The notes: a model not told the origin generated them from the sequence alone. A stretch of DNA of 64,000 nt from Candidatus Latescibacterota bacterium (GCA_965208105.1 OZ242318.1:1600001-1664000), one strand, 5' to 3'; positions 5,126 to 24,804 are shown, counted from the first letter of the stretch. Program-made: numbers and translations.

Positions 5126-5764
5126 GTGAAAGCAGCCATATTCGATCTGGACGGCACCCTTCTGCCCGCAACCAGCGCGGAAAGAGAGTTCGTCCGCTTC
5201 GTCCTGCAGACCCGCAGGCGGACCGTTCCCGAGACGGTCGGAGCCCTGCTCTCCTGGATAGTCCACGTCCCCACCCGCGGCCTGCGCGCCAACAAGGCCC
5301 ACCTCCGCGGCGTCGAGGTCGATCTGTTGGAGGATACCGCGGAGGCGTTCTGCCGCCAGCGGCTGGCTCGGCGTATCCCGCGGCAGGCCAGGGACATGAT
5401 CGAATCCCATCGCGCCGCGGGGGATATCCTCGGCATCCTCTCCGGCTCTCCGCAGCTTTTGATAGCTCCTCTGAAGGACCTCCTGGGATTGGATTTCGTT
5501 GCCGGGACCGGGCTGGCTGGCAGGCGGGGCAGTTTGACCGGGGACCTGGAGGGTCCGCATCTCTCCGGAGCGGAGAAGGTCCGGCGGGCGCAGGAAGCGG
5601 CGTGCGCCTGTGATTTTTACCTGGCGCGGTCCGCGGCCTACGGCAACGCCTTCGCAGACCGCTACCTGCTGGAGGTAGTGGGCTGTCCCCGGGTGGTCAA
5701 CCCGGACCGCCGGCTGGCGCGGCTGGCGCGGCGCAAGGGCTGGCCCATCTCCATTTGGTCCTGA
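5126..5764 (+). CDS. HAD-IB family phosphatase (SerB-like)
   Basis: AIFDLDGTL, ILSGS, GAEK, AYGNAFAD..LLE.VG.P.VVNPD. GTG start 8 nt after the upstream stop. Confidence 0.85.
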   Translation: MKAAIFDLDGTLLPATSAEREFVRFVLQTRRRTVPETVGALLSWIVHVPTRGLRANKAHLRGVEVDLLEDTAEAFCRQRLARRIPRQARDMIESHRAAGDILGILSGSPQLLIAPLKDLLGLDFVAGTGLAGRRGSLTGDLEGPHLSGAEKVRRAQEAACACDFYLARSAAYGNAFADRYLLEVVGCPRVVNPDRRLARLARRKGWPISIWS

Positions 5765-6080
5765 AGGAAAATCCAGATGTCGCTGCGGGCCCCGGGAGAG
5801 GATGGGGCGGCCCGAAGACTGGCCCATCCCGGTCTGGGCTTGGTGGACAATCGCCTGGGCGCTGCCGGGCCGGGAGCTGACGCCCTCAGCCGCTGCTGCC
5901 CACCCGGGGCATTACCCGTTCGAGTAGCGCGGGCGACGGCAATGGGATATACTATCCCGGTGCAAGCACCAGTCAGCTTGCGGGAGGTCCGGGTGTCCAA
6001 GGCAGCGGTGGCGCAGAACCAGCAGGTTCGCAGCCGATCCTCGGCGCAGCCGGAAATACCAGGCAGGCAGGAGAAGCAGG

Positions 6081-11951: not shown

Positions 11952-12896
11952 ATGAAGACCGACCTGCGCTGCTCCCTCTACGTGCTGGCCTCGGCCGCGG
12001 CCGCGGCCGGCGGCCTACTGTTTACCGAGATCGCCATCAACTTCTACGCGGCCACAACCCTGCAGATCGCCTTCCTGGCCAACATCATCGGCGGCATCTT
12101 CCTGCTCCTTCCCTGCATCCGCGGCAGCCGGCCGTGGCAGGGCTGGCCCCTGCGCGATTGGCTGCGCTTCGCGGTCTCCGCGGTGACGATCTACGCGGCC
12201 GGGTTCGTTCTGCTCTACGCCGCCATCTCCCACGTCGGCGCCAGCAAGGTCATCCTCCTCGGCCGCGTCGAGGCCATCTTCGTCGTCGCTCTCGCGGTGA
12301 TCTTTCTCGGGGAACGCTGGTCCGCCCGCCACTGGTTCGCCACCTTCCTGGCCCTGGCCGGAGCCACCCTGATCAGCTTCGATCCCGCGGTCCTGCAACT
12401 GGCCTTCTCCTGGGGAGACGGGCTCACCCTGCTCTCCTCTCTGGTGGTGGCCGCCGGCATCGTCATCCTGAAGCCCCTCGTGGTGCGCCGCGACCCCCAG
12501 TTCGCCACCGGCCTCGGGCTGCTCGCCGGGGCCGTCTGCCTGGGGCCGTTCCTCCTCCTCGGGATGGGGAAGCCGGAGATCTCGATCCTGGCGGCAGGGC
12601 CTCTCCTGATGGTCCTGATGGTAATCCGCGGCATCCTGCTGGGGCTGTCCTGGGCGGCCTACAACGCCGCCATGAGGCATATCGGCGCATCCCGCTGCGC
12701 TGTGCTCTTCCTGTCGGTGTCCTTCCTCACCGTGGCCCTGCAGGTGCTGGTGGACGCCATCGCCCCCGGCCTCGGCCTGCGGATTCCGGTCAACCTGGAG
12801 ACGGCGGTCGCCGGCGGCGCAGTCATCTCGGTGGCTGTGGCCCTGGTCCAGGTCCAGCGCCATCCCGGGGGAGGCTCGGCCCGCCGAATGAACTGA
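11952..12896 (+). CDS. DMT/EamA family transporter
   Basis: About 10 TM helices in two repeats; AVIFLGERW, AMRHIGASR. Confidence 0.85.
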   Translation: MKTDLRCSLYVLASAAAAAGGLLFTEIAINFYAATTLQIAFLANIIGGIFLLLPCIRGSRPWQGWPLRDWLRFAVSAVTIYAAGFVLLYAAISHVGASKVILLGRVEAIFVVALAVIFLGERWSARHWFATFLALAGATLISFDPAVLQLAFSWGDGLTLLSSLVVAAGIVILKPLVVRRDPQFATGLGLLAGAVCLGPFLLLGMGKPEISILAAGPLLMVLMVIRGILLGLSWAAYNAAMRHIGASRCAVLFLSVSFLTVALQVLVDAIAPGLGLRIPVNLETAVAGGAVISVAVALVQVQRHPGGGSARRMN

Positions 12897-13058
12897 GGGC
12901 GCCCTCGGCGGACTCCGCCACCGGGAAACGCCCCGGGGATTCCTCTCCCGACATCCGCCTCCAGGAGGCCGGTGTCGGTTTGTCGCGCCAAAACCGATGA
13001 TCTAAATTTTCTCGAGGACGAGTAGTCCAACTTCGACCATTGGTCAGGAGAGGATAAC

Positions 13059-14225
13059 GTGAAATACAGGGATGCAATATCGGCACTAATTTTTTGCCTG
13101 GGATTCACCATTGCCGGTCCCGTGCCGCAAGGGCATGCCGAGACCAACCTGGACGGACAAGTCAGCCGCGAAGCACAGCGGGAGGGCAGATGGAAAATGG
13201 TTACCTCCGCGACCATGTACGGATTCTACCTGTACGGTCCGGGAACAGCCCGTTTGCTCGATATCGATTCAGCGCAGCAGATAGTCGGACTGGAGATGCT
13301 GATAGGCGGCGGCTCCTTTTTCTACTCGCTCAAGGCCACGAAAAACTACCGCCTGGGCGCCGGCCGCACCCAGCTGATTCTCGGGGGAAGTCTGGCCGGG
13401 ACCCTGTACGGATTTGGCCTACCCGTGTTCTTCGAAGAGGAAGACGACAGGCCGTATCTTGCCGCGGCGATGATCGCTACCCCGGCAGGCGGACTGCTAG
13501 CTCACAGGCTCAGTGCGCACCGGTGGTTCGAGAAGGGGGAAAGCGACCTGATCGTCAACGGTGGATTGGTCGGGGCGTTGTACGGAGTCGCCATTCCCTA
13601 CCTCGCCGACATAGAAGACTCGCGTGAATGGGCCCAGGCCAAAATCTATGTTGCCTCCGCGATGGCAGGTGCGCCGGCCGGGGTCTGGGCCACGACGAGA
13701 TTGATTCGCGGCAGACCGATCAACCAGGGGCGTGCCCATCTTCTCTCCCTGGGGGCCGTCGTCGGCGCCTCCTACGCAAGCGGCATCCTCAGCCTGGCGG
13801 ACGTGGAGGCCCCCCGAGCCCACGTACTCGCGGTCATGCTCGGCTTGCCGGCGGGCACCTGTTTCTCCTACCGGTGGACGGGTGCGGAGGAATATCCGAT
13901 CAAGCGGGCGAGATTGATTTCCCTGGGCGCCCTGGTTGGCAGCCTGTTCGGCTCCGGGGTTGCCCTGGTTGCCGAGGCCGAAGACCACAAACCTTACGTC
14001 CTGGCAAACATAATCGGATCGGCCGCGGGGATCTGGTACGCCCACGGTTTCTCCCGGGACAGCGACGGGACATCCGCCGCAGGCAACAACCGGAGTTCCA
14101 TTGCAGACAGGATCACCGTTTCCCTGCCCTCGCTCGGCCACTGGTTCACCATGGGCCTGATGATGCTCGACCAGCGGTCTCCCGGCGGGGGGACACCGGT
14201 GGAGTTGGTGCGCGTCTCGTTCTGA
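13059..14225 (+). CDS. Hypothetical secreted/membrane protein with Gly-rich hydrophobic repeats
   Basis: Signal peptide; four ~60-aa repeats (e.g. GRTQLILGGSLAGTLYG, GRAHLLSLGAVVGASYA); ends VELVRVSF; RBS ggagagga. Confidence 0.65.
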   Translation: MKYRDAISALIFCLGFTIAGPVPQGHAETNLDGQVSREAQREGRWKMVTSATMYGFYLYGPGTARLLDIDSAQQIVGLEMLIGGGSFFYSLKATKNYRLGAGRTQLILGGSLAGTLYGFGLPVFFEEEDDRPYLAAAMIATPAGGLLAHRLSAHRWFEKGESDLIVNGGLVGALYGVAIPYLADIEDSREWAQAKIYVASAMAGAPAGVWATTRLIRGRPINQGRAHLLSLGAVVGASYASGILSLADVEAPRAHVLAVMLGLPAGTCFSYRWTGAEEYPIKRARLISLGALVGSLFGSGVALVAEAEDHKPYVLANIIGSAAGIWYAHGFSRDSDGTSAAGNNRSSIADRITVSLPSLGHWFTMGLMMLDQRSPGGGTPVELVRVSF

Positions 14226-14340
14226 GCGGATCGGTTAGGAGCAGCGCGGGCATCCCGGCCCCGGTCCGGCTGCCGGTGGTCCACCGCTCTTTATCCCGGG
14301 AAAAGGAAGCGGAGCCGGACCGTCCTCCTACTCTCCGGGT

Positions 14341-16287
14341 TCACCTTTGCAAATATCGATCGAACCACTCCAGGTTGCGTCGCGCAAAGTCGAGCAGCAG
14401 CTTGGGCTCGGTCAGGCCATGGGGGGTGCGCGGGTAGACGACCATTTTAACCGGCACGCCTCGCCGCTTGAGGGCGCGGTAGAATTCATACCCCTGGGAA
14501 ATCGGCACCACGCTGTCATCCTCGGAATGCTGGATCAGGGTCGGCGTCGAAACCTCCTGGACGTGGAATATGGGCGAGCGCGCCAGGTAGATGTCCAGGT
14601 CGTCCCAGAACTCGGCGCCGAGATAGTCGGTGATGCAGGTCGGGATATCCGATGTGCCGGCGTCGCTCACCAGGTTGACCGGGCCCGCTCCCACCGAAGC
14701 CGCCTTGAAACGCCTGGTCCGCGTGATGGTCCACGCGGTCAGGTACCCGCCGTAGCTCCATCCCATCACACCCAGGCGCGTCGGGTCCGCCACACCCATT
14801 TCGATGGCGAAGTCCACCCCCTTCATGAGGTCCTCGTAGTCCCCGCCGCCCCAATCCCGGTAGTTGGCCTCGATGAACTTCCTGCCGTAACCGGACGAGC
14901 CTCGAACGTTGCAGCGCAAGACCGCGTAACCGCGGGCGGCGAAAGCGGCGATGGGATAAGGATTGTCAGGGTCGAGACCGGTGGTGAAGGTCCGGGTGAA
15001 CATGTCCATGGGTCCGCCGTGGACGATGAGCAGGAGCGGGTAGCGCTTTCCCGGTTCGCACCCCGCCGGATAGGTGAGCAACCCTTCGATTTCCAGACCA
15101 TCCGACGACTGGTAGCGGATGACCTCGGTGCGGTTCGAAGGAATGGCGGCCATGTGGCCGTTGACGCGGCTGATCTGCACCGGCTTGAAGCGGTCGAGGG
15201 AGGTGACGTACACCTCCGCGGGCCGGGTGGTACCCTGGGCGACGAAACCCACCATCGACCGGGATGGATTCAGGCTGGCGGAGGAAATCACCATGTCCAC
15301 CCGGTCCAGTTGCCGCGGCGGGCCGCCCTCGAGGGAGACGGCGAAAAGTCCGGTGGCGGTGCCGCGGGAATCGCTGTAGTACAGCGCGCGGCTGTCGACG
15401 GACCAACCGACCAGCTCGGGCCATCTTTCAAAGGTCTCCGCCAGGAGATGGTGGCCTCCACCGGCGGCGGGCGCGACGAACACGTCGGGCGTCGATGCCC
15501 AACTAAGCGGTCCGGTGCCAGCCTGGAACGCCAGCCAGCGCCCGTCAGGTGAATAGAGCGGCGAGCCCGAACCCTTCACCGGAAGCAGCGATTGAATCTC
15601 TCCGGTCTCCACCTCCACAACCGCGATCTCGGCCGAGGACCAGTCGTCGGTCCGCGGAGTCGGGGTGCGGGTGAACGCGATCCTTCTCCCATCGGGAGAC
15701 CAATCGAACATCCGACCGCCGAAGCAACTGCCCACGTTGAAATCTCCGCCCGTAAGCGGCCGGGACCGATCCCCTCCGCTGCCCTCATCTTCCACGGAGA
15801 TTAGCCACAATCGGTTCATCCTGAAGTTCTCGTCCACCACCCTGGCGTCGTCCTTCTCCTTCGCCGCCCGCCTCTCGGAGGGCGCAGGCGCATCGGGCAT
15901 GACGAAGGCGATCCACTTTCCGTCGGGCGACCACCTGAAAGAACCCACCTCCGTCTCGACGTGGGTCAACTGCCGGACCTCCTCGCTATCGGTGTGAAGC
16001 AGAAATAGGTTGGTACTCCCGGACCGGCTAGAGGTGAATCCTATCCACACTCCCTCCGGGGACCATTGCGGATTCCCGCAGGAGCTGTCGCCGAAGGTGC
16101 GCTGAACAACACCTGTGCCGCCGTCGCTGGAATAGATATGGGTGAGGTATTCGCTCTTGTCCGAGGTCATCACCGGCCGGGTCACGGTGAAGACCACCTG
16201 GCGTCCGTCGGGCGCAGGGTGGACATCGCCTACCGCCCAGACCTGGATCAGCTCGTCAAGAGAGGGAGTTGCGGGCATTCGGCGCAC
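14341..16287 (-). CDS. S9 family peptidase (acylaminoacyl/dipeptidyl aminopeptidase)
   Basis: PD40-like WSPDG repeats, VHGGP, GWSYGG nucleophile, HSEDD, YPRTPHG. Confidence 0.92.
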   Translation of the reverse strand: MRRMPATPSLDELIQVWAVGDVHPAPDGRQVVFTVTRPVMTSDKSEYLTHIYSSDGGTGVVQRTFGDSSCGNPQWSPEGVWIGFTSSRSGSTNLFLLHTDSEEVRQLTHVETEVGSFRWSPDGKWIAFVMPDAPAPSERRAAKEKDDARVVDENFRMNRLWLISVEDEGSGGDRSRPLTGGDFNVGSCFGGRMFDWSPDGRRIAFTRTPTPRTDDWSSAEIAVVEVETGEIQSLLPVKGSGSPLYSPDGRWLAFQAGTGPLSWASTPDVFVAPAAGGGHHLLAETFERWPELVGWSVDSRALYYSDSRGTATGLFAVSLEGGPPRQLDRVDMVISSASLNPSRSMVGFVAQGTTRPAEVYVTSLDRFKPVQISRVNGHMAAIPSNRTEVIRYQSSDGLEIEGLLTYPAGCEPGKRYPLLLIVHGGPMDMFTRTFTTGLDPDNPYPIAAFAARGYAVLRCNVRGSSGYGRKFIEANYRDWGGGDYEDLMKGVDFAIEMGVADPTRLGVMGWSYGGYLTAWTITRTRRFKAASVGAGPVNLVSDAGTSDIPTCITDYLGAEFWDDLDIYLARSPIFHVQEVSTPTLIQHSEDDSVVPISQGYEFYRALKRRGVPVKMVVYPRTPHGLTEPKLLLDFARRNLEWFDRYLQR

Positions 16288-16420
16288 CTAAATGGGAGTG
16301 GAGTGAGATGCGGCTCGACGGGGCCTACCTTCGTCACCGGCCGGTCGGTTGCCGTGGAAGGTTCGTCAGGTCAAATTGTGTCGGCGAATCTTCTGAAATG
16401 AGGGTCGGACGGGCAAATGC

Positions 16421-16915
16421 TCATCCCGAGTGCTCGCCGCCGCTCTCGCCACCCTCGCCTCCGCCCGAGTGCTCACCTCCGCCCTCGGCTTCACCGGAGT
16501 GCTCACCGCCTTCGCCGGAGTGCTCTCCCCCGCTGCCGCCTCCCCCAACTTCCGGATGCGCGCTCCAGGTGACGAAGGGTTCGCTCGTGGCCTCCAGGGT
16601 AATCGCAATGGTCTGGCCGGGCGCCAGGTCCACCGGCGGCGTCGGGCCCAGCTCCGTTCCATTCGACAGGTGAACTTCCACCCGGACCTGCGGCAGCGTC
16701 TCCGAGGTCGTGTTCTCCACCGTGCCGGTGAAGCTGTTGGTCTCCGAGTCGTACGACAGGATGAGCCGCGCCCCGGAGCGGGTGTGGTCATAGGTCTCGC
16801 CGATTCCGAACTGCTGGGCCGACTCCTCGTCGCTTTCGGTCGAGGCGGAGGGATTGTCATCTGAACAGGCAGCCAACGAGGCAGCCGCAACGCAGAAAAA
16901 GAAGAAGAGTTTCAC
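16421..16915 (-). CDS. Lipoprotein with Ig-like (FxLYD-like) domain and C-terminal GEHS repeats
   Basis: Lipobox LAAC; GTVENTT..TL..VRVEVHLSNG.ELG....DLAPG; tail with four GEHS units. Confidence 0.7.
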   Translation of the reverse strand: MKLFFFFCVAAASLAACSDDNPSASTESDEESAQQFGIGETYDHTRSGARLILSYDSETNSFTGTVENTTSETLPQVRVEVHLSNGTELGPTPPVDLAPGQTIAITLEATSEPFVTWSAHPEVGGGGSGGEHSGEGGEHSGEAEGGGEHSGGGEGGESGGEHSG

Positions 16916-16996
16916 CGTAATTCCTTTCCAGAATGGGGTGATGGTCTCCGGCCTGGCAAAGTCACACTAAAGAATCGAGCCGCGGACTCTAAGCCC

Positions 16997-17674
16997 TCAT
17001 TGACGCTTTCGATTAGAAGATGTTTTCCTTGAATCGTCCAGTTGTTCTTCGACGATTTCACTACCCCGCGCGGCGATGCGCATGGCGACCCGCGGGACCC
17101 AGTTGCGCGGGCGGCCCAGCAAGGGGCCGCGGACGACCTCGAAGCCGGCGCGGCGGAACAGCGGTTCGGTGCCGAAGTAGACGTTGTCGTCCCTGCTGCG
17201 TTCTCCGCCGCTACGGGGATAAGCCTCCACCGCGGGCGCGCCATGTTCTTTGGCGAATGCCACCGCGGCGCGAATGAGGGCGAGGGCGATGCCGCGGCCG
17301 CGCCGGCCCTTGCGCACCGTAACGCAGGGAATCACCCAGACGGGATCGGCGTCCACCGGGGGTGTGGCGCGGGAGCGGACGATCCGCGTCAGTTCGCTCC
17401 GGGGAGCCACCGCGATCCAGCCGACCGCCTCGCCGCTCTCATAGGCCAGCAGACCCGGGGCGCGGCGGGCGCCGGCAAGGCGGGTCATCGCCTCCCGGCG
17501 GCGCGGACCCAATGGCCCGGAGCCGGGCAACTGACGCGTCTGCGCCTCGGTCAGGCGCGGAAACATGCACCAGCAGCCGGCGCCCCAGCTCCCCCGCAGG
17601 ACGACCCCCAGATCGTCGATGAGCTCCGGCGTCAATGGTCTGAATTCAATGGTGCCGCATGCTTTGTCGGACAA
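16997..17674 (-). CDS. GNAT family N-acetyltransferase
   Basis: CWCM, GLLAY..GEAVGWIAV, acetyl-CoA motif RRGRGIA.ALI, VEAYP, FRRAGFE. Confidence 0.85.
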   Translation of the reverse strand: MSDKACGTIEFRPLTPELIDDLGVVLRGSWGAGCWCMFPRLTEAQTRQLPGSGPLGPRRREAMTRLAGARRAPGLLAYESGEAVGWIAVAPRSELTRIVRSRATPPVDADPVWVIPCVTVRKGRRGRGIALALIRAAVAFAKEHGAPAVEAYPRSGGERSRDDNVYFGTEPLFRRAGFEVVRGPLLGRPRNWVPRVAMRIAARGSEIVEEQLDDSRKTSSNRKRQ

Positions 17675-17830
17675 GTGTCGCTCCTCGAGGGTATTGCAAC
17701 GTGGACGCGGCAGGGTCGCGCCACGATACCGAGGTAGGAAAATAATCGCTTCCCGAGGGTGTTGGGATGCCGCTCCCGGCAGGAGGCCGGGGCAGCCTGC
17801 GGGAGAACGCCCGGACGCGGTCCAGGGCGC

Positions 17831-18499
17831 TCAGCTGGCGCTCGGCTGCGAAACCCCAATGAGGCTGTCGCGGGTGACGAGCCGCGCCAGCTCCTCCTCG
17901 CTCATGCCTTCGGTCCCCGGCGGCCGCATGGGCAGGACCAGGTAGCGCATGTCGGCGGTGCTGTCGTGGACGCGGATCTCCATCTCCTCGGCGATTTCGG
18001 TCCCGAACTCGGCCAGCACGGCGCGAGGCTCGCGCACCGCGCGGCTGCGGTAGCTGCGCGACTTGTACCAGTCCGGCGGCGGTCCGAGCAGGAAGCGCGG
18101 ATAGCACGAACACAGGGTGCACACCACCAGGTTGTGAGCACGGGGGGTGTTTTCCATCACCAGGACCGGAAACTGTCCGGTGTCAATTCCAAGATCCGCC
18201 GCGGCCTTCGCCGAATCGGCAAGGAGCCGCCGGCGAAAACCGTCATCGACCCATGCCCGGGCGACCAGCCGCGCCCCCTGGACGAGGCTGAGGGAGTCCA
18301 TGCGCTCGACCTGGGCGCGCATGTCGGCGGCCGAGACTATTCCCTTCTCGATGAGGAGGCCAGTCACCGCCATCAGCATCACCTGATGGTGGGACAGGGG
18401 GGTGTCCTCCAGGTCCGGCTGGGGAGGATGGCGATGGTCCTCATCCACCTTGTCTCCATGCCCTTTATGGTGTCCGCCTTGGTGTGCCAATTCTCTCAT
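17831..18499 (-). CDS. Cobalt-type nitrile hydratase alpha / thiocyanate hydrolase gamma-like subunit
   Basis: Metal motif VCTLCSCY, GARLVARAW, VREPRAVLAEFG, DSTADMRYLVLPMRP. ATG overlaps the upstream stop (ATGA). Confidence 0.93.
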   Translation of the reverse strand: MRELAHQGGHHKGHGDKVDEDHRHPPQPDLEDTPLSHHQVMLMAVTGLLIEKGIVSAADMRAQVERMDSLSLVQGARLVARAWVDDGFRRRLLADSAKAAADLGIDTGQFPVLVMENTPRAHNLVVCTLCSCYPRFLLGPPPDWYKSRSYRSRAVREPRAVLAEFGTEIAEEMEIRVHDSTADMRYLVLPMRPPGTEGMSEEELARLVTRDSLIGVSQPSAS

Positions 18500-18795
18500 T
18501 CCCTTTCTTCCGGCGCCGGCGCAAGCCAGTGCTCGTAGATCTCGATCTCCACTCGGTCCCCGTCGCTTCCCTTGTAGTCCGGCCACAGCGCACGGCTGGG
18601 GAAGCTGACCCGGTACAGCACCTGGTCCTCCGCGTCCCGCTTGCCGTAGGCGAGCTGCTCGGGATTGGGGAAGCTGCCGCAGACCCTTTCCACTTTCCCG
18701 GACTTGCCGCGGCAGTACCACGGGGTGCGGACGTGGCCGGGCGGAAAGCGAGGCCGCACCCGCACCCGGTCGCCCGGCGCGAATCTTGGCTTCAT
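18496..18795 (-). CDS. Nitrile hydratase beta C-terminal (SH3-like) half / ScnA-like subunit
   Basis: FAPGDRVRV, GHVRTPWYCRGKSG, LYRVSF...LW, EIYEHWL; own GGAGG RBS. Confidence 0.9.
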   Translation of the reverse strand: MKPRFAPGDRVRVRPRFPPGHVRTPWYCRGKSGKVERVCGSFPNPEQLAYGKRDAEDQVLYRVSFPSRALWPDYKGSDGDRVEIEIYEHWLAPAPEERE

Positions 18796-18886
18796 GTCCC
18801 ATCAGCCTCCCGGGGAAAATCGTCTCGCCACGGCAGTGTTCCAGTAGCGAAGATCGGCTCAATTCCTTTGCCCGAAGTCAGCGCGG

Positions 18887-19204
18887 TCACGGCAACCCGC
18901 CCAGCTTGCCGGCCTCGATCTCGGCCATGCGCTCGCCGAGCTCGCTCACCTCGATGATCCTCTTCTCGAGCAGGAGGTTGGTCATCGACGCCATCCAGCG
19001 CTCGTAGTAGCCCAGGCGGTCGTAGGCATCGGCTCCCAGCTCCTCGATCCCCCGGCGCAGTTCGTCCACGCTGAGGATTTTCCGTCTGCCGAGAAGGACC
19101 ATGAGAGCATCAACCCTCTTCTCCCACGGTGCCCTGTCGTGCTCTTCCCGGTCGATGGGACCGGCTTCGAGCCCGCCCATGTCGTGGTGTCTCCTTGCGG
19201 TCAT
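18887..19204 (-). CDS. Nitrile hydratase beta N-terminal half / ScnB-like subunit
   Basis: HDMGG, WEKRV, DELRRGIE, YYERW, LLEKRII. Start MTARRHHDMGG. Confidence 0.88.
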   Translation of the reverse strand: MTARRHHDMGGLEAGPIDREEHDRAPWEKRVDALMVLLGRRKILSVDELRRGIEELGADAYDRLGYYERWMASMTNLLLEKRIIEVSELGERMAEIEAGKLGGLP

Positions 19205-19305
19205 TGAGGAATCTCTTTTTCTCCCTTTATCCCGGGGATTGGACGCCTGCCGGCAGGAGCAGCCTAGGGCATTTCCCCCCAGCCCTACCTCCCGCCTTGC
19301 TCGGC

Positions 19306-20019
19306 TCACGCAATGAACTTGCCATAATCCAGGATGGTCGCATACACCATGAGACCGATGATGAACAGCCAGCCGGCCAGCGCCAGCGGCGCGTGAAGCC
19401 GCAGTAAACCGGGGTGCAATTTCTCCAGGAGGTAGAGGCAGATCTTGCCGCCATCCAGCGGCGGAACCGGCAACAGGTTGAGGAATGCAAGGTTGAGACT
19501 GAGAACGATGGAAAAGTTCAGCAGCTTGACCGCGTCGGTACCGGCGAACTGCCCTCCCTGAACGACGATTCCGACGATTCCCGACAGTTGATCGGGGCGG
19601 GAAAAAAGCAACGGGATGGCCGCGAAAAACTCCTGGATCGTGTCCAGTGTTTGTGAGACCGGCAGAACAAAGGCGCCGGAGAAGGAAAAGCCGGAGGTCA
19701 GCCAGTTCAAGATGGCGAAGCAAAACAACGGAAGCAGGATGTTCGCCAACGGCCCTCCCAGGGCGAAAAGAATCCGCCTGCCCACAGGAATCCGGAAGAA
19801 TTCGGTCTCGTCAGCGATGTCGGGCAACACATATCCCCCTACGGGAATCCACGAGAGTCGATATTCGGTGCTGCCTCTTTTTATCCCCCACAACTTTGGG
19901 CCCAGGCCTATGGAAAATCTCGCTACGGGCATCCCCACCCATCGCGCCACGAGAAAATGCCCGAGTTCATGAAAGAGAATCAGCAGGCCGACCAGCCAGC
20001 CGGCGATGAGGTAGTCCAT
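19306..20019 (-). CDS. Site-2 protease (M50/RseP-like, no PDZ domain)
   Basis: HELGH, FSIGLGP, IPVGGYV, GGPLAN, NLLPVPPLDGG. Confidence 0.92.
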   Translation of the reverse strand: MDYLIAGWLVGLLILFHELGHFLVARWVGMPVARFSIGLGPKLWGIKRGSTEYRLSWIPVGGYVLPDIADETEFFRIPVGRRILFALGGPLANILLPLFCFAILNWLTSGFSFSGAFVLPVSQTLDTIQEFFAAIPLLFSRPDQLSGIVGIVVQGGQFAGTDAVKLLNFSIVLSLNLAFLNLLPVPPLDGGKICLYLLEKLHPGLLRLHAPLALAGWLFIIGLMVYATILDYGKFIA

Positions 20020-20026
20020 GTGCTCC

Positions 20027-20839
20027 TCAGTTTCGGCCTTGCGAAGTGCCGACCTTCCTGCCGGCGATCAGAAGCATTTGCGGCAGTCCCTCCAAAGGCG
20101 CGCACTCCCACCCCTCGGCGGCGTCGCCGATCTCCTCGAATCTGATCAGCTCGGCCCCCTGCTCGATGACCGCGTTGAGGTACTGGGAAACCGTCCAGTG
20201 AAACTCGTACTGCTTCACGTCGCCGGGTTGATTGGCGAGCAGATCCTCGGTGGCGCTGTATTCATGCGGGCCATTGTCGAAGTAGCTTGCCTGAACCTCC
20301 AGGGAGTCAGCCGAATCCTTCCAAATCCTGCGGAAGGGATGGTACTCGTTGACCAGGAACAGACCTCCCGGCCGCAGAATCCGGATGGCTTCGCGGTAGT
20401 AGGCCCGGAGATCGGAAACCCAGACCCCCACGTGGCCGCCGGTGTACACCAGGTCATAGCCGGAGCTTTCCAGGCAGCTCAGGTCGGCGACGTCCGCCTC
20501 CACGAATCTGATGGAAAGGTCCAGATCGGCGGCGCGGCGGCGGGCTACGCTCAATTGTTCGGCGGAGATGTCCACGGAGGTTACCCGGGCGCCCATCCCC
20601 GCAAAACCGAAGACGGCGAGATTGTCTCCGCTGCCCAGAACGCAGACCTCCCGATTCTCCACCGTGCCGATCAGGTCGAGCTCCTGCGGCAGAAAGATCT
20701 GCTCGGGCTGCCGGTGGGCGATGCGCCAGGTGCCGCGCCTGTCGTGCATGGCCTCCCAGGCCGGTGAACCCAGATTCCAGCGGTCCCTGTTTGCCAGGTG
20801 ATAGTCGTTCACGGCCGGCAAGTCCAGTCTGCGATCCAT
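20027..20839 (-). CDS. Class I SAM-dependent methyltransferase
   Basis: VCVLGSGD, GARVTSVDIS, YDLVY, RILRPGGLF...EYHPF. Confidence 0.85.
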   Translation of the reverse strand: MDRRLDLPAVNDYHLANRDRWNLGSPAWEAMHDRRGTWRIAHRQPEQIFLPQELDLIGTVENREVCVLGSGDNLAVFGFAGMGARVTSVDISAEQLSVARRRAADLDLSIRFVEADVADLSCLESSGYDLVYTGGHVGVWVSDLRAYYREAIRILRPGGLFLVNEYHPFRRIWKDSADSLEVQASYFDNGPHEYSATEDLLANQPGDVKQYEFHWTVSQYLNAVIEQGAELIRFEEIGDAAEGWECAPLEGLPQMLLIAGRKVGTSQGRN

Positions 20840-20861
20840 GTGCACTCCTCTCGGGTCCCGG

Positions 20862-21338
20862 CTAAATGTACATCTGGATGGAGAACATCCCGTAGCCAAA
20901 GCGCTCGTAGAACCGGTAGGTGCGCGACCAGTCCACGTTGTTCGATCCCACCATGGAGCGCCTGATCCCCTCCGCTCTCGACCTCGACAGCAACGCCTCT
21001 ACAAGCCGGCCTCCAACTCCCCTGTCGCGGTGGTCGAGGTGAACGAAGACCTCGTGAATATGCAGGAACCATTCGCCCTCGGGCTTGAACAGGGTGTGCT
21101 TTTTCACCGCTCCCGCGGCGTAAGCTATGACCACCTCCTCATGCTCGCCCACCAGGAAGTAGCCCCCATCGAGCCAGGACCCGAGCCGCTCGTCGCCTTC
21201 CTTCAGCCCGGGATATCCCGTCGTACAGCCTTCGGCCGACCAGAGTTTCGACAAGCCCACGACGGCCGGGAAATCGCCGGCTCGAGCAGGCCTGATATCA
21301 TAACCATTATCCCGTTGCCTATCCCGTTGCCGGCTCAT
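20862..21338 (-). CDS. GNAT family N-acetyltransferase
   Basis: IRPA, FVHLDHRDRGVGGRLV, FYERFGY. Confidence 0.85.
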   Translation of the reverse strand: MSRQRDRQRDNGYDIRPARAGDFPAVVGLSKLWSAEGCTTGYPGLKEGDERLGSWLDGGYFLVGEHEEVVIAYAAGAVKKHTLFKPEGEWFLHIHEVFVHLDHRDRGVGGRLVEALLSRSRAEGIRRSMVGSNNVDWSRTYRFYERFGYGMFSIQMYI

Positions 21339-21350
21339 GTTTTCCCCTTC

Positions 21351-21968
21351 TCAGGGCAGCCTCACCGCGACAAGATGGGACTTTTCCAGGGGCAGGATGT
21401 GGGTCAGGTAATCGGGGTCCTCGTCCAGCCCGCGTTTGAATGCCGCCCAATCCGGGTCCTCGTCCCATTGTTCGACCTTGGACCAGCCGTCGACGAAGAG
21501 GAAGGCCCTCGGCGTCATCCGGCTTTGCAGAAGGGGAAACATGGGACCGAACGCGTGTAGGCCAAAATCGACGAAGACGAAGTCCACGCGCTCGGGGAGG
21601 GCTGCGATAAAGGCGTCCCCCTCTCCGGATTGACATTCCACCAGGTGGTCCAGGCCGGCCCGGCGCAGATTGCCCTGGGCAACCGCAGTTTTCTCTGGCA
21701 CCTGGTCCAGGCTGAAGACGCGACCCCCGGTGCGTTGGGCCGCTGCGGCCAGGTGCAGGGTGGAGTAGCCGTGGGAGGTGCCGAACTCCACGAGGACCCT
21801 CGCCGGTTGGCGGATGGCGGCGAAACAGAGGTATCGGGCCACCTGGGGGCTGACCGCCTTGAGGCGCATGGGATCGGTGGAGCCGGCGCGGCGCTCCCGG
21901 CGGTCGCGCCTGTGCAGGCCGTCGACGATGGCTCGTTGCTCCGGCGTGAACAGGTCTTCGATTTGCAT
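21351..21968 (-). CDS. O-methyltransferase-like class I SAM methyltransferase
   Basis: LVEFGTSHGYSTLHLA, NLRRAGL, VDFVFVD. Confidence 0.85.
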   Translation of the reverse strand: MQIEDLFTPEQRAIVDGLHRRDRRERRAGSTDPMRLKAVSPQVARYLCFAAIRQPARVLVEFGTSHGYSTLHLAAAAQRTGGRVFSLDQVPEKTAVAQGNLRRAGLDHLVECQSGEGDAFIAALPERVDFVFVDFGLHAFGPMFPLLQSRMTPRAFLFVDGWSKVEQWDEDPDWAAFKRGLDEDPDYLTHILPLEKSHLVAVRLP

Positions 21969-22011
21969 GGCAGAATCCTTCGGCTCATCACCCCCCGGCG
22001 CACGGCACCCC

Positions 22012-23049
22012 TCATCGATCGGCGCGCCGGGTCATCTTGAGGGCCTCTACGGGGCGGCCCTCGGGCAGGGCCCGCAGCCAGACGCCGTCGAGAAAGAAAT
22101 CCTCGCCGCGCCCGCTGACCTCGAAGCCCAGCTCCCTGAACAGCCGTTGCTTTTCTTCATCCTCCCCGGATACGGTGGCGACGAACTCGCGGGCATCGCG
22201 CCCCCGCCCCCATTCCATCGCCGCGAGGATGAGGCCGGGCCAATCCTTCAGATAGTAGGGATGGGTGAATCCATCCACCGAACACACCCCATCCGCCTCG
22301 AGCTTCGCGCTGGAAAGGCCGACCACCTTCTGGCGCTCACCGGCCCGCGCCGCGAAGAAGGTGGAGCCGGGCTGCTGCAGCATGTCCACGTAGGCGCCGC
22401 ACTGACCGGCGAAACTGCGGCGCACGGAGTAGCGCGTGGTGAAGATGCCGGCATTGCAGTCCATCACCTGCCAGTCGTGCGGGGTATGCACCAGCGGCAC
22501 CGCCGGAGTCCGGTCTGCCGCTTCCCCTGGAAAAATGGCCGCCGGGCCCAGGCCGCGGAAGTAGTCGGTGAAATACGCCTCGGGGGACTCCCCGGACATG
22601 GCCTGCACCAGGGCGTTGGAGCCGACCAGCTTCGAGTAGCCGACGCGGGCGTAGAGGCGGTCCGCATCCTGGTTGCCGCCCCCCATGACGATGGCCTCAC
22701 CGCCCATCTCGCGGAAATCCCGGACCGGCCGCTCGAAGAGGACGCGCCCGATGCCGCGGCGGCGAAACCCGGGATCGGTGGCCGGCATGCCGAATTCGGC
22801 GAGCTTCGGGTCGCGACGGGAGATCCACAGCATGGAGGTCCCCGCCAACTGCCCCCGGACGCGGGCCAGATAGAGCACCTTGCGGTCCTCCGGCCGGTCG
22901 CGGTCGCTGAGGCACTCGACGTACCAGGACAGGTCCGAGCCCTGGCCGATCTGCTCCGGCACCTTGGTCCACAACTCGTGGACCTCTATGGCCAGGGCCC
23001 GGTCCTCGATCGGGGATTCGATCCGGGTGATCTCGAGCTCGCTCGCCAT
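22012..23049 (-). CDS. GNAT family protein (probable tandem GNAT domains)
   Basis: ATDPGFRRRGIGRVL, RLYARVGY; second domain ends LFRELGFE. Confidence 0.75.
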   Translation of the reverse strand: MASELEITRIESPIEDRALAIEVHELWTKVPEQIGQGSDLSWYVECLSDRDRPEDRKVLYLARVRGQLAGTSMLWISRRDPKLAEFGMPATDPGFRRRGIGRVLFERPVRDFREMGGEAIVMGGGNQDADRLYARVGYSKLVGSNALVQAMSGESPEAYFTDYFRGLGPAAIFPGEAADRTPAVPLVHTPHDWQVMDCNAGIFTTRYSVRRSFAGQCGAYVDMLQQPGSTFFAARAGERQKVVGLSSAKLEADGVCSVDGFTHPYYLKDWPGLILAAMEWGRGRDAREFVATVSGEDEEKQRLFRELGFEVSGRGEDFFLDGVWLRALPEGRPVEALKMTRRADR

Positions 23050-23292
23050 CAGGACCTCACTTCAGGGAAGGTTTCCAGCCGCGCGGGCATCGGGGCCGCA
23101 CCGTCAAGCCGGGCGATACCGGCGAGGGCTGCGGACCCTTCGAGCAAAACCGGGCCGCTGCCAAATGGCGCCGGACGGCGCCAACTTCCAGCCGATTGTC
23201 CGCGGGATGCATTTTCGCTCATGCGGCTTTCGATAACGGCGGTGTCATGCGATTCATGACCAATAGTAAGGGTTCCCCCCGGGCGGGCAAGC

Positions 23293-24804
23293 TCAGCCCC
23301 CGGCCAGGTCCAGGGTCGATCCGCGTTCGTCGCCGGCGACCCGCCAGCGCATGGTGGTCAGCCGTCCCAGGAAGCGCTCGTCGTGGCTGACCAGCAGCAG
23401 GCCGCAGGGGCACTCTTCCAGCGCCTCCTCGAGGCATTGGATGGAGGGAAGGTCGAGATGGTTGGTCGGCTCGTCCATGACGATCAGGTGGGGCAGCCGG
23501 GCGATACCCAGCGCCAGCAGGATCTTGCGCACTTCACCGGGACTGGGCTCGGCGCTCTCGAGCAATCTGTGCGGCCTGGACCCCAGCCGGCTCACCGCGG
23601 TCATGGTGCGGCCCAACTCCGCCGGGGGCAGGGAGCGCAGCTCGGCGAGAACCCGGCGCGCCTCCCCGGCGCTGATTTCCTGGGGCAGGTAGACCAGCCG
23701 TTCGGGCTCGATATTGAGCCGCCGCAGCAGGTGGCGCACCAGGGTGCTCTTGCCGCCGCCATTGGGGCCGGAGAGCGCCACCCGGTCCGCGGGCCGCATC
23801 ACCAGGTCGGGATGCTCGAGGGTCCGGCGGCCTCCGAGATCAATCTTCCCGGCGGCCAGGCGCAGGAGATAGTCGCGCTTCGACCGCTCCCTGCCGAGCC
23901 ATATCCCCATGTCGTAGGTCTTCCTGACCCGGATCTCCTCGGCCTTCCGCCGCGCCTGCTGCAGGCGGCCGTCCATCTGCCGCAGCAGCCGCCCGCTCTG
24001 GCCGTCCTTGCCGCTCACCCGCGCCAGATTGCGCTTGTAGCGTTCGCTGTTGTCCTTGCCCAGGCCGCGCTTGGAGCGGCGCTTGTCCGCGCGCGCCGCC
24101 TCCTCCCGCCGCCGCGCCACCTCGCGCTCGAGCCGGTCGCGCTGCCGCCGCGCCTGCTCGGCTTCGCGCCGCAGGCCTCCCTCCTCCAGGGCCTCCTGTT
24201 GAACTCCCCGGGAATAGCCCCCGGGCCGCACAGTGGCTCCCGGGGGGTCGACGAAGACGCACTGGCGGCAGAGCTGGTCGAGGAGGTCCCGGTCGTGGCT
24301 GACCAGAAGCCCCACACCCCCATAGTCCCGCAACGCCCCCTGCAACAGCCCGCGCGCCGGGGCATCGATGTGGTTGGTCGGCTCATCGACGGCGAGCACC
24401 GGGGGCTGCTGCCACAGCGCCGCGGCGATCTGCGCCCGCTTGCGCTCGCCGTGGCTCAGGCTCTCCCAGCGTTCGATCCAGTCGGACTCCAGCCCCAAGC
24501 GGCCTTTGACCTCCCAGGCCTCGCCGTCCATCGCCTCCAGCAGGAGGCCCAGCAGGGGCGGGGGATCGTCGGTGCGCTGGGCGCAGTAGACGCTCTCCCC
24601 CGGCCCCAGCACCGACCCGGCATCGGGGGGAAAGGCCCCCACCGCCAGCTTGAGCAGGGTCGTCTTTCCCGACCCGTTGGCCCCGACAATGCCCGTCCAC
24701 CCCTGCGGAAAGTGCAGCGTCAGGCCGCCGAACAGCGGATCGCTCATGGTCTCGTAGGCGAATTCCACCTCGCTGAAACGTATCTCGTTCATACCCGTCA
24801 CCAT
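23293..24804 (-). CDS. ABC-F family ribosome-associated ATPase (candidate antibiotic-resistance ABC-F)
   Basis: Two NBDs (GANGSGKTT/LSHGE/DEPTNHID; GPNGGGKST/SPGE/DEPTNHLD), long Arg/Lys-rich linker, no TM segments. Start may be ATG 24792. Confidence 0.9.
   Translation of the reverse strand: MVTGMNEIRFSEVEFAYETMSDPLFGGLTLHFPQGWTGIVGANGSGKTTLLKLAVGAFPPDAGSVLGPGESVYCAQRTDDPPPLLGLLLEAMDGEAWEVKGRLGLESDWIERWESLSHGERKRAQIAAALWQQPPVLAVDEPTNHIDAPARGLLQGALRDYGGVGLLVSHDRDLLDQLCRQCVFVDPPGATVRPGGYSRGVQQEALEEGGLRREAEQARRQRDRLEREVARRREEAARADKRRSKRGLGKDNSERYKRNLARVSGKDGQSGRLLRQMDGRLQQARRKAEEIRVRKTYDMGIWLGRERSKRDYLLRLAAGKIDLGGRRTLEHPDLVMRPADRVALSGPNGGGKSTLVRHLLRRLNIEPERLVYLPQEISAGEARRVLAELRSLPPAELGRTMTAVSRLGSRPHRLLESAEPSPGEVRKILLALGIARLPHLIVMDEPTNHLDLPSIQCLEEALEECPCGLLLVSHDERFLGRLTTMRWRVAGDERGSTLDLAGG

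Follow-up and report, generated by a model that had tools for sequence, protein, structure and literature searches.

A three-gene cassette of Candidatus Latescibacterota bacterium (GCA_965208105.1), located in the 64,000-nucleotide (nt) stretch of DNA analyzed here (OZ242318.1:1600001-1664000, hereafter the window), very likely encodes a working, activator-independent, three-subunit nitrile hydratase (NHase) of the cobalt type. As judged from its sequence, the enzyme is an unexceptional member of a large and widespread clade inside the known kind of three-subunit NHases. In the mechanism we propose, the alpha subunit would supply the Cys-Thr-Leu-Cys-Ser-Cys metal site, while two small proteins, betaN and betaC, would stand in for the single beta chain and provide Arg50 (betaN) and Arg23 (betaC), and an organic nitrile would be hydrated to its amide. 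Cobalt would be caught by the His-rich tail of alpha, betaN would double as a swapping chaperone like AnhD of Streptomyces canus, no separate accessory protein would be needed for maturation, and the amide product might be passed to one of the unlinked amidases of the genome. The substrate is probably, at a guess, an ordinary nitrile, polar and not anionic, rather than thiocyanate, because a single Arg lies in an otherwise hydrophobic pocket. An initial annotation of this DNA, made from the sequence alone, had read the locus as a split-beta, three-subunit, cobalt-type enzyme of the NHase/thiocyanate hydrolase (SCNase) family with a peculiar hybrid pocket; the architecture and the family stand, whereas the peculiarity of the pocket does not.

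The assignment is carried by the domains, the closest solved chains and the residues of the active site. The Pfam families NHase_beta_N, NHase_beta_C and NHase_alpha match betaN, betaC and alpha with 72.3, 77.3 and 253.7 bits, respectively, the N- and C-terminal beta domains sitting on separate proteins. Among solved structures, the best match of alpha is the Co-type NHase alpha chain 3qxe_A (E 1.9e-57, 197 bits, vs 177 bits for the SCNase gamma chain 2dd4_C) and that of betaN is the Co-NHase beta chain 3qxe_B (40.6 bits, vs 36.7 for the SCNase beta chain 2dd4_B), while betaC is best matched by the Fe-type NHase beta chain 2ahj_B (61.6 bits), followed by the Co-type 3qxe_B (58.3 bits), with the SCNase alpha chain 2dd4_A at 40.4 bits. 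SCNase chains hence score under NHase chains for all three subunits. The cassette keeps every metal-binding cysteine and the Ser of alpha as well as both conserved Arg of beta, and betaN contains the Tyr-Tyr-x-x-Trp segment. Indeed, Arg50 of betaN and Arg23 of betaC align with the conserved Arg pair of the solved beta chains, the segment of Arg23, a residue whose role is presumably catalytic, aligning with GHIRMPAY of 2ahj_B and GHTRMPRY of 3qxe_B. The Thr of the Cys-Thr-Leu-Cys-Ser-Cys motif marks the Co type. Because of this Thr and of the Co-type top matches of alpha, we infer that the metal would be cobalt. Canonical Co-NHases (3qxe and the operons of Rhodococcus rhodochrous, Parageobacillus and Klebsiella michiganensis) offer a close comparison: alpha and betaN find their best solved matches among them and betaC a near-best one, and they share with the cassette the metal motif, Tyr-Tyr-x-x-Trp and the two beta Arg. 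In contrast with the cassette, they have a single fused beta chain, CSC-YP is followed by Trp, the beta pocket column holds Phe, and the neighboring genes encode a cobalt transporter, an accessory protein and an amidase.

Regarding the gene structure, betaN, betaC and alpha are all present, with the motifs read by the initial annotation, as intact open reading frames (ORFs) on the minus strand between 17831 and 19204, as established by ORF reading and translation (Table 1). The two beta halves lie in different reading frames, 91 nt apart, and a GGGAGG, read by the initial annotation as the ribosome-binding site of betaC (GGAGG), lies 10 nt before the betaC ATG, while the stop codon of betaC overlaps the alpha start in the tetranucleotide ATGA. 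That the split of beta is genuine, as had been proposed, is borne out by the relatives of the cassette. When one genome was scanned for each species, 283 loci were found to encode a relative, and the best 80 of the 283 were used, with origins in Latescibacterota, Alpha- and Gammaproteobacteria, Dehalococcoidia, Gaiellaceae and other Actinomycetota, Planctomycetota, Enterobacteriaceae and further groups. Both beta halves were detected in 74 of these 80 loci; in 73 of the 74, each half has its own ORF, and in 71 the order is betaN-betaC-alpha. The same three-gene layout is found on RefSeq plasmids of Streptomyces sp. NBC_01176, Planktothrix agardhii PCC7805, Agrobacterium pusense and Burkholderia sp. 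PAMC 26561, whose records label the beta halves "SH3-like domain-containing protein" or "nitrile hydratase". No fused betaN-betaC protein appeared among the top 120 results of a betaN search for longer proteins, which is weak evidence. The split beta is real, yet it is no rarity.

Table 1. Coordinates of the cassette and of its main features in the window (nt counted from the first base of the window).
Feature	Position	Strand	Description
betaN, N-terminal half of NHase beta (P0001)	18887-19204	-	105 residues; HHDMGG and DELRRGIE; PF21006
betaC, C-terminal (SH3-like) half of beta (P0002)	18496-18795	-	99 residues; GHVRTPWY; PF02211
alpha, catalytic subunit (P0003)	17831-18499	-	222 residues; VCTLCSCYPR; PF02979
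betaN/betaC spacer	18796-18886	-	91 nt; contains GGGAGG
GGGAGG	18806-18811	-	10 nt ahead of the betaC ATG
DELRR, betaN residues 47-51	19052-19066	-	Leu49 is the pocket position; Arg50 falls on the conserved beta Arg
GHVRTPWY, betaC residues 20-27	18715-18738	-	second conserved beta Arg is Arg23
CTLCSCYPR, alpha residues 127-135	18095-18121	-	metal-binding Cys cluster and Arg135
His-rich N-terminal tail of alpha	18377-18499	-	8 His in the first 41 residues

The spacer between the beta halves has the same length only in the same-genus locus L002, the junction in other relatives being -4 (an overlap), about 5, 23 or 248 nt. Because this length differs among close relatives, the 91-nt spacer is a local detail and implies no conserved element. 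No sigma-70-like promoter was found, and none of the six terminator-like sites seen (about 2.5 expected by chance) falls within the three genes or directly at their borders (17700-19300). As a separate observation, locus L068 is the sole one of the 74 in which betaN and betaC matches share one ORF (5369-5998), the betaN match being partial; either a secondary gene fusion or a frameshift in the assembly could account for this.

The residues predicted to line the substrate pocket had been the main ground for regarding the enzyme as unusual. Both residue readings proved correct: Arg135 of alpha is the gamma-type Arg that follows CSC-YP, and in a phmmer alignment, with the position counted by hand, Leu49 of betaN falls on residue 90 of 2dd4_B, an Arg in that chain, so that the beta90-equivalent site holds Leu and not Arg. 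The two 2dd4_B Arg that come after residue 90 align with Arg50 and Arg51 of betaN, and the column of Leu49 corresponds to the Phe of DEFRH in the Co-NHase 3qxe_B of Pseudomonas putida. Arg136 is the number that the initial annotation gave to the corresponding SCNase gamma residue, for which the literature search, yielding passages on gene order and phylogeny only, gave no confirmation; nor did that search, outside of which subscription journals mostly fell, turn up a paper dealing with the Arg/Leu pocket in this clade.

It is the distribution of these residues that changes their meaning. After CSC-YP, where three aligned solved Co-NHases have Trp, the window and the 80 loci read Arg in 61 cases, Thr in 11, Lys in 6, Gly in 2 and Ile in 1, Trp being absent; Arg or Lys is thus found in 67 of the 81 rows. 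The alpha subunit has more than 8000 homologues in the database, the top 120 of which are 72-100% identical to it and all carry CSCYP[RK] (CTLCSCYPR in 112, CTLCSCYPK in 8). As for the beta pocket column, Leu occupies it in 60 of 75 rows, the others having Met (10), His (2), Phe (2) or Ser (1). By comparison, the canonical fused-beta operons show Trp after CSC-YP in 3/3 and Phe in the beta column in the two rows correctly picked. In three other split loci, found on the Streptomyces, Agrobacterium and Burkholderia plasmids (L082, L084 and L088, respectively), alpha has the Arg and the beta pocket column has Lys (3/3), and the 120 best homologues of the Streptomyces L082 alpha all read YPR. On these alignments, the alpha Arg accompanies the whole split-beta lineage and only the beta column differs between subgroups; the Arg135/Leu49 pair is the norm of a large family and no special hybrid. 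The view that the pocket is a peculiar one, neither that of an NHase nor that of an SCNase, is consequently not supported, and since the pair marks a large family, no special or anionic nitrile substrate follows from it. The Arg after CSC-YP is the common state of split-beta NHases and no signature of SCNases, which corrects a tempting reading. In four Dehalococcoidia loci (L042, L047, L049 and L054), CSC-YP is followed by Thr, and the 6 kb to each side of alpha revealed no beta half.

SCNase itself, the enzyme converting thiocyanate (SCN-) to carbonyl sulfide and ammonia, was considered as an alternative identity. ScnABC of Thiobacillus thioparus (2dd4) is likewise built from three subunits, encoded in an identical order, with a CTLCSC motif as its cobalt site and an Arg following CSC-YP, and its solved chains are significant matches to the cassette subunits. 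The order betaN-betaC-alpha is, however, common to many enzymes other than SCNases. In order to obtain true SCNases, 401 genomes from one order were searched with TIGR03887, the equivalog model of SCNase gamma, and seven passed its cut-off, sub-threshold matches being present in 112 of the 401 (in this tally only, the unpublished G208 and G297 are included). The seven score 338-400 bits, the next best scores 234 and none lies between 234 and 338; the alpha of the cassette obtains 206.3 bits vs a cut-off of 291.45. All seven carry CSCYPRPIL in their gamma subunit, and all seven read Arg-Arg-Arg where the betaN of the cassette reads Leu-Arg-Arg. In fact, it is the beta-site Arg alone that set them apart from the rest of the sample. 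Moreover, betaN and betaC have no SCNase-type N-terminal extensions, their alignments to 2dd4_B and 2dd4_A beginning at residues 45 and 34 of these chains, respectively, and the cassette has no downstream activator gene, such as the one that SCNase carries according to the accessible part of a published description (PMC7193024). Given in addition that alpha is placed outside the SCNase clade on both trees described below, orthology with ScnABC is extremely improbable; with a TIGR03887 score below the cut-off, Leu at beta 90 and a separate clade, the cassette is, by its sequence, not that of an SCNase.

In a 100-row tree of alpha subunits, the seven SCNases form one clade (Shimodaira-Hasegawa-like approximate likelihood ratio test, SH-aLRT, 99), and the window together with L002-L007 forms a separate seven-row clade (SH-aLRT 99) composed of Latescibacterota and proteobacterial metagenome-assembled genomes (MAGs). 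A 44-row tree recovered the SCNase clade with a support of 100/99 and the window clade with 100/100, the latter joining four further proteobacterial rows at 98/96, while the deep branches are without resolution. The three plasmid loci L082, L084 and L088 deserve a word of their own. They group with the SCNase clade at SH-aLRT 99 in the 100-row tree but only at 86/53 in the 44-row tree, and each of them has a gene for a cobalt transporter (HoxN or CbtAB) linked to it; an aquaporin gene adjoins L082 and L084, and the gene order is betaC-alpha-betaN in L084 and L088. The Streptomyces plasmid locus L082 shares its gene order with the window but differs from it by the Lys in place of Leu, by its linked aquaporin and HoxN genes and by a position away from the window clade. 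The top 120 homologues of its alpha subunit include no entry named as S. canus or S. rimosus.

Other variations on the split architecture were encountered among the relatives. In seven Dehalococcoidia loci (L034, L036, L038, L045, L063, L066 and L070), two paralogues of the alanine-racemase-N/D-serine-dehydratase type are inserted between betaC and alpha, and a luciferase-like monooxygenase is encoded close by in six of the seven (not in L036) as well as near the Enterobacteriaceae locus L015. In addition, proteins of about 199 residues (P0243, P0249, P0272 and P0362), of which there are many in metagenomes, have two NHase_beta_N domains in tandem and no beta_C. The identity of either copy with the betaN of the window is about 51%, and the first copy of P0243 has an Arg in the Leu49 column. 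These proteins could be fused "two-copy" chaperones, like alpha(accessory)2 complexes.

How would such an enzyme be matured? A search of the whole 4.85-Mb genome with the accessory-protein model TIGR03889 returned only betaN, with 23 bits vs a cut-off of 46. As the initial annotation had noticed, neither an amidase nor an activator of the P14K/NhlE type adjoins the cassette, none being present among the flanking ORFs. The N-terminal tail of alpha has at least four His in 120/120 close homologues, with a median of 10. Activator-free maturation would fit because betaN resembles accessory proteins, as AnhD does, and because the alpha tail is His-rich. Precedents for this architecture, for which ToyJKL and SCNase had been named beforehand, are in print, and according to the available portions of two reports, they include three-subunit NHases without activator, namely ToyJKL and AnhD-AnhE-AnhA of S. 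canus (PMC7329996; PMC12648386). In the accessible part of the former, the NHase of S. canus CGMCC 13662 is described as a cobalt-type enzyme with the gene order beta-N half, beta-C half, alpha, as encoded in a genome without activator gene, and as having an N-terminal beta half akin to accessory proteins, to which the 23 bits of the window betaN on TIGR03889 may be likened; its AnhD doubles as a metal and swapping chaperone (PMC7329996). Known substrates of this S. canus enzyme (ScNHase) are acetamiprid, thiacloprid and benzonitrile. ToyJKL of Streptomyces rimosus likewise has three subunits instead of two, as stated in the accessible portion of PMC12648386, and its alpha alone is reported to be enough for activity and self-modification (as cited in the available part of PMC7329996). 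Unlike the cassette, it is part of the toy biosynthetic gene cluster and has a nucleoside nitrile as its substrate, no such cluster being found in the window. Likened by architecture and not by sequence, the cassette belongs to this known activator-free, three-subunit kind.

Several observations weigh against a working, self-maturing NHase and have to be set beside those above. The alpha subunit scores 239.8 on the NCBIfam NHase-alpha equivalog (nitrile_alph), vs a cut-off of 249.85, and the beta halves score 63.2 and 73.4 on nitrile_beta, far below its cut-off of 152.2, although low values are expected on the latter for half-length chains. The trees were built without ToyJKL and the S. canus AnhDEA. 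The capture of cobalt by the His tail is plausible by analogy, the roles of the tail and of betaN being borrowed from other enzymes. No linked amidase, cobalt transporter or regulator anchors the cassette in a pathway, and there was no RNA run among the sequencing runs listed with cassette matches. Taken to its end, the lack of linked pathway genes could indicate a decaying or silent remnant without function. Yet all three ORFs are intact and every conserved metal-binding and Arg residue is kept, copies 94-95% identical persist in independent metagenomes and the clade is 72-92% conserved across phyla; we therefore regard decay as very unlikely and retain the functional NHase.

The genome consists of a single 4.85-Mb contig, is 93.9% complete and contains one NHase alpha gene. 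On the same strand as the cassette, an M50 peptidase gene lies upstream and a GNAT acetyltransferase gene downstream. The amidase-signature family gave ten matches, distributed over nine sites; none is in the window and the closest is about 147 kb off. The one NicO-type transporter of the genome is far from the cassette. No match was obtained for an aldoxime dehydratase in the genome, but control genomes were equally silent. As methyltransferases using S-adenosylmethionine (SAM), GNAT acetyltransferases and the M50 peptidase flank the cassette on the same strand, it could be asked whether the enzyme tailors, in the manner of ToyJKL (PMC12648386, from its accessible part), a secondary metabolite made by the neighboring genes, all the more so as the Planktothrix homologue adjoins asnB, TauD, methyltransferase and glutathione S-transferase genes. 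The flanking genes are nevertheless kept only in the same-genus Latescibacterota locus L002, no core biosynthetic gene is present among the flanking ORFs scanned (11952-24804), and the closest proteobacterial cassettes occur in very different contexts, which makes such a tailoring role improbable. Clustering the 3930 ORFs of the 80 loci gave no neighbor family present in more than 11 of them, the bigger neighbor clusters being alternative frames of the NHase genes themselves.

Some features of the surroundings were noted in passing. Two SAM methyltransferases and two GNAT acetyltransferases are encoded directly upstream of the M50 peptidase gene (20027-23049, minus strand), and the run is followed by an ABC-F ATPase gene at 23293-24804. 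Two genes of this group, MT205 and GNAT345, have no counterpart in the fetched part of L002, where a VIT/VWA protein is encoded between the methyltransferase and the M50 gene. An S9 peptidase corresponds to one ORF of 648 residues in the window (14341-16287) and to two overlapping ORFs in L002 (8877-10197), which suggests a frameshift in L002. Finally, the G+C content falls to 44-49% between 10000 and 11800, vs 60-70% across the rest of the 18 kb profiled.

The cassette, which lies among unrelated genes, seems to travel on its own. Among 60 relatives of this bacterium, 35 have an NHase alpha, but only the same-genus genome has this type of cassette (79% identity); the alphas of the other 34 are 49-59% identical to that of the window, and the next closest cassettes, at 73-77%, are found in proteobacterial MAGs. 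Because its kin are mostly without this type while proteobacterial MAGs hold the closest cassettes, the pattern fits a self-contained, horizontally spread cassette, though its G+C content equals that of its flanks.

An ecological setting is suggested by metagenomes, runs with a word share below 0.2 having been left out. Parts of the operon, near-identical or about 95% identical, are found in runs labeled sponge or marine metagenome. Three sponge-labeled runs, each from a different study, contain single contigs of 750-900 nt that are about 94-95% identical (35-52 differences) and span alpha-betaC-betaN or betaC-betaN. NHase genes are also listed, without detail, in sponge Latescibacterota MAGs, in the accessible part of PMC12993501. 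Could the cassette then process a sponge-derived nitrile such as aeroplysinin-1? Besides these related copies in sponge-labeled metagenomes of several studies and the MAG listing (PMC12993501), it has been reported, in the portion available of PMC3766881, that an aeroplysinin-1-specific NHase of host or symbiont origin, which cobalt rescued in part, has been purified out of Aplysina cavernicola. However, the same source gives a preference of this activity for manganese and bands of 26 and 72 kDa (PMC3766881, accessible part), while the subunits of the window are roughly 25, 12 and 11 kDa, by our own arithmetic from their 222, 105 and 99 residues, and none fits the 72-kDa band. The five de novo peptides of the A. 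cavernicola preparation are absent from the genome and from the loci, apart from one 8-mer found with one mismatch at an unrelated place, and members of the same clade also occur in MAGs without established habitat. A role in sponge nitrile metabolism is accordingly, in our opinion, distinctly improbable.

What the finding would mean can be considered at several levels. For the organism, the cassette would be an accessory trait that its sponge-associated Latescibacterota genus gained by horizontal transfer. One could go further and, although the odds are long, propose that the His-tailed clade with Arg in alpha and Leu in beta forms a distinct, self-maturing NHase subfamily, whose sponge-symbiont members hydrate polar nitriles of their host, such as the bromotyrosine nitrile aeroplysinin-1. 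If this were true, the long-sought microbial source of the wound-activated nitrile-to-amide step of sponges would be identified, and the alpha Arg, which essentially all split-beta enzymes have in place of Trp, would shift the preference of the family to polar or heteroatom-bound nitriles. For the family, a very large, phylum-crossing clade of apparently self-maturing Co-NHases, in which we identified no characterized member, comes into view, and this clade might yield a compact, activator-free biocatalyst.

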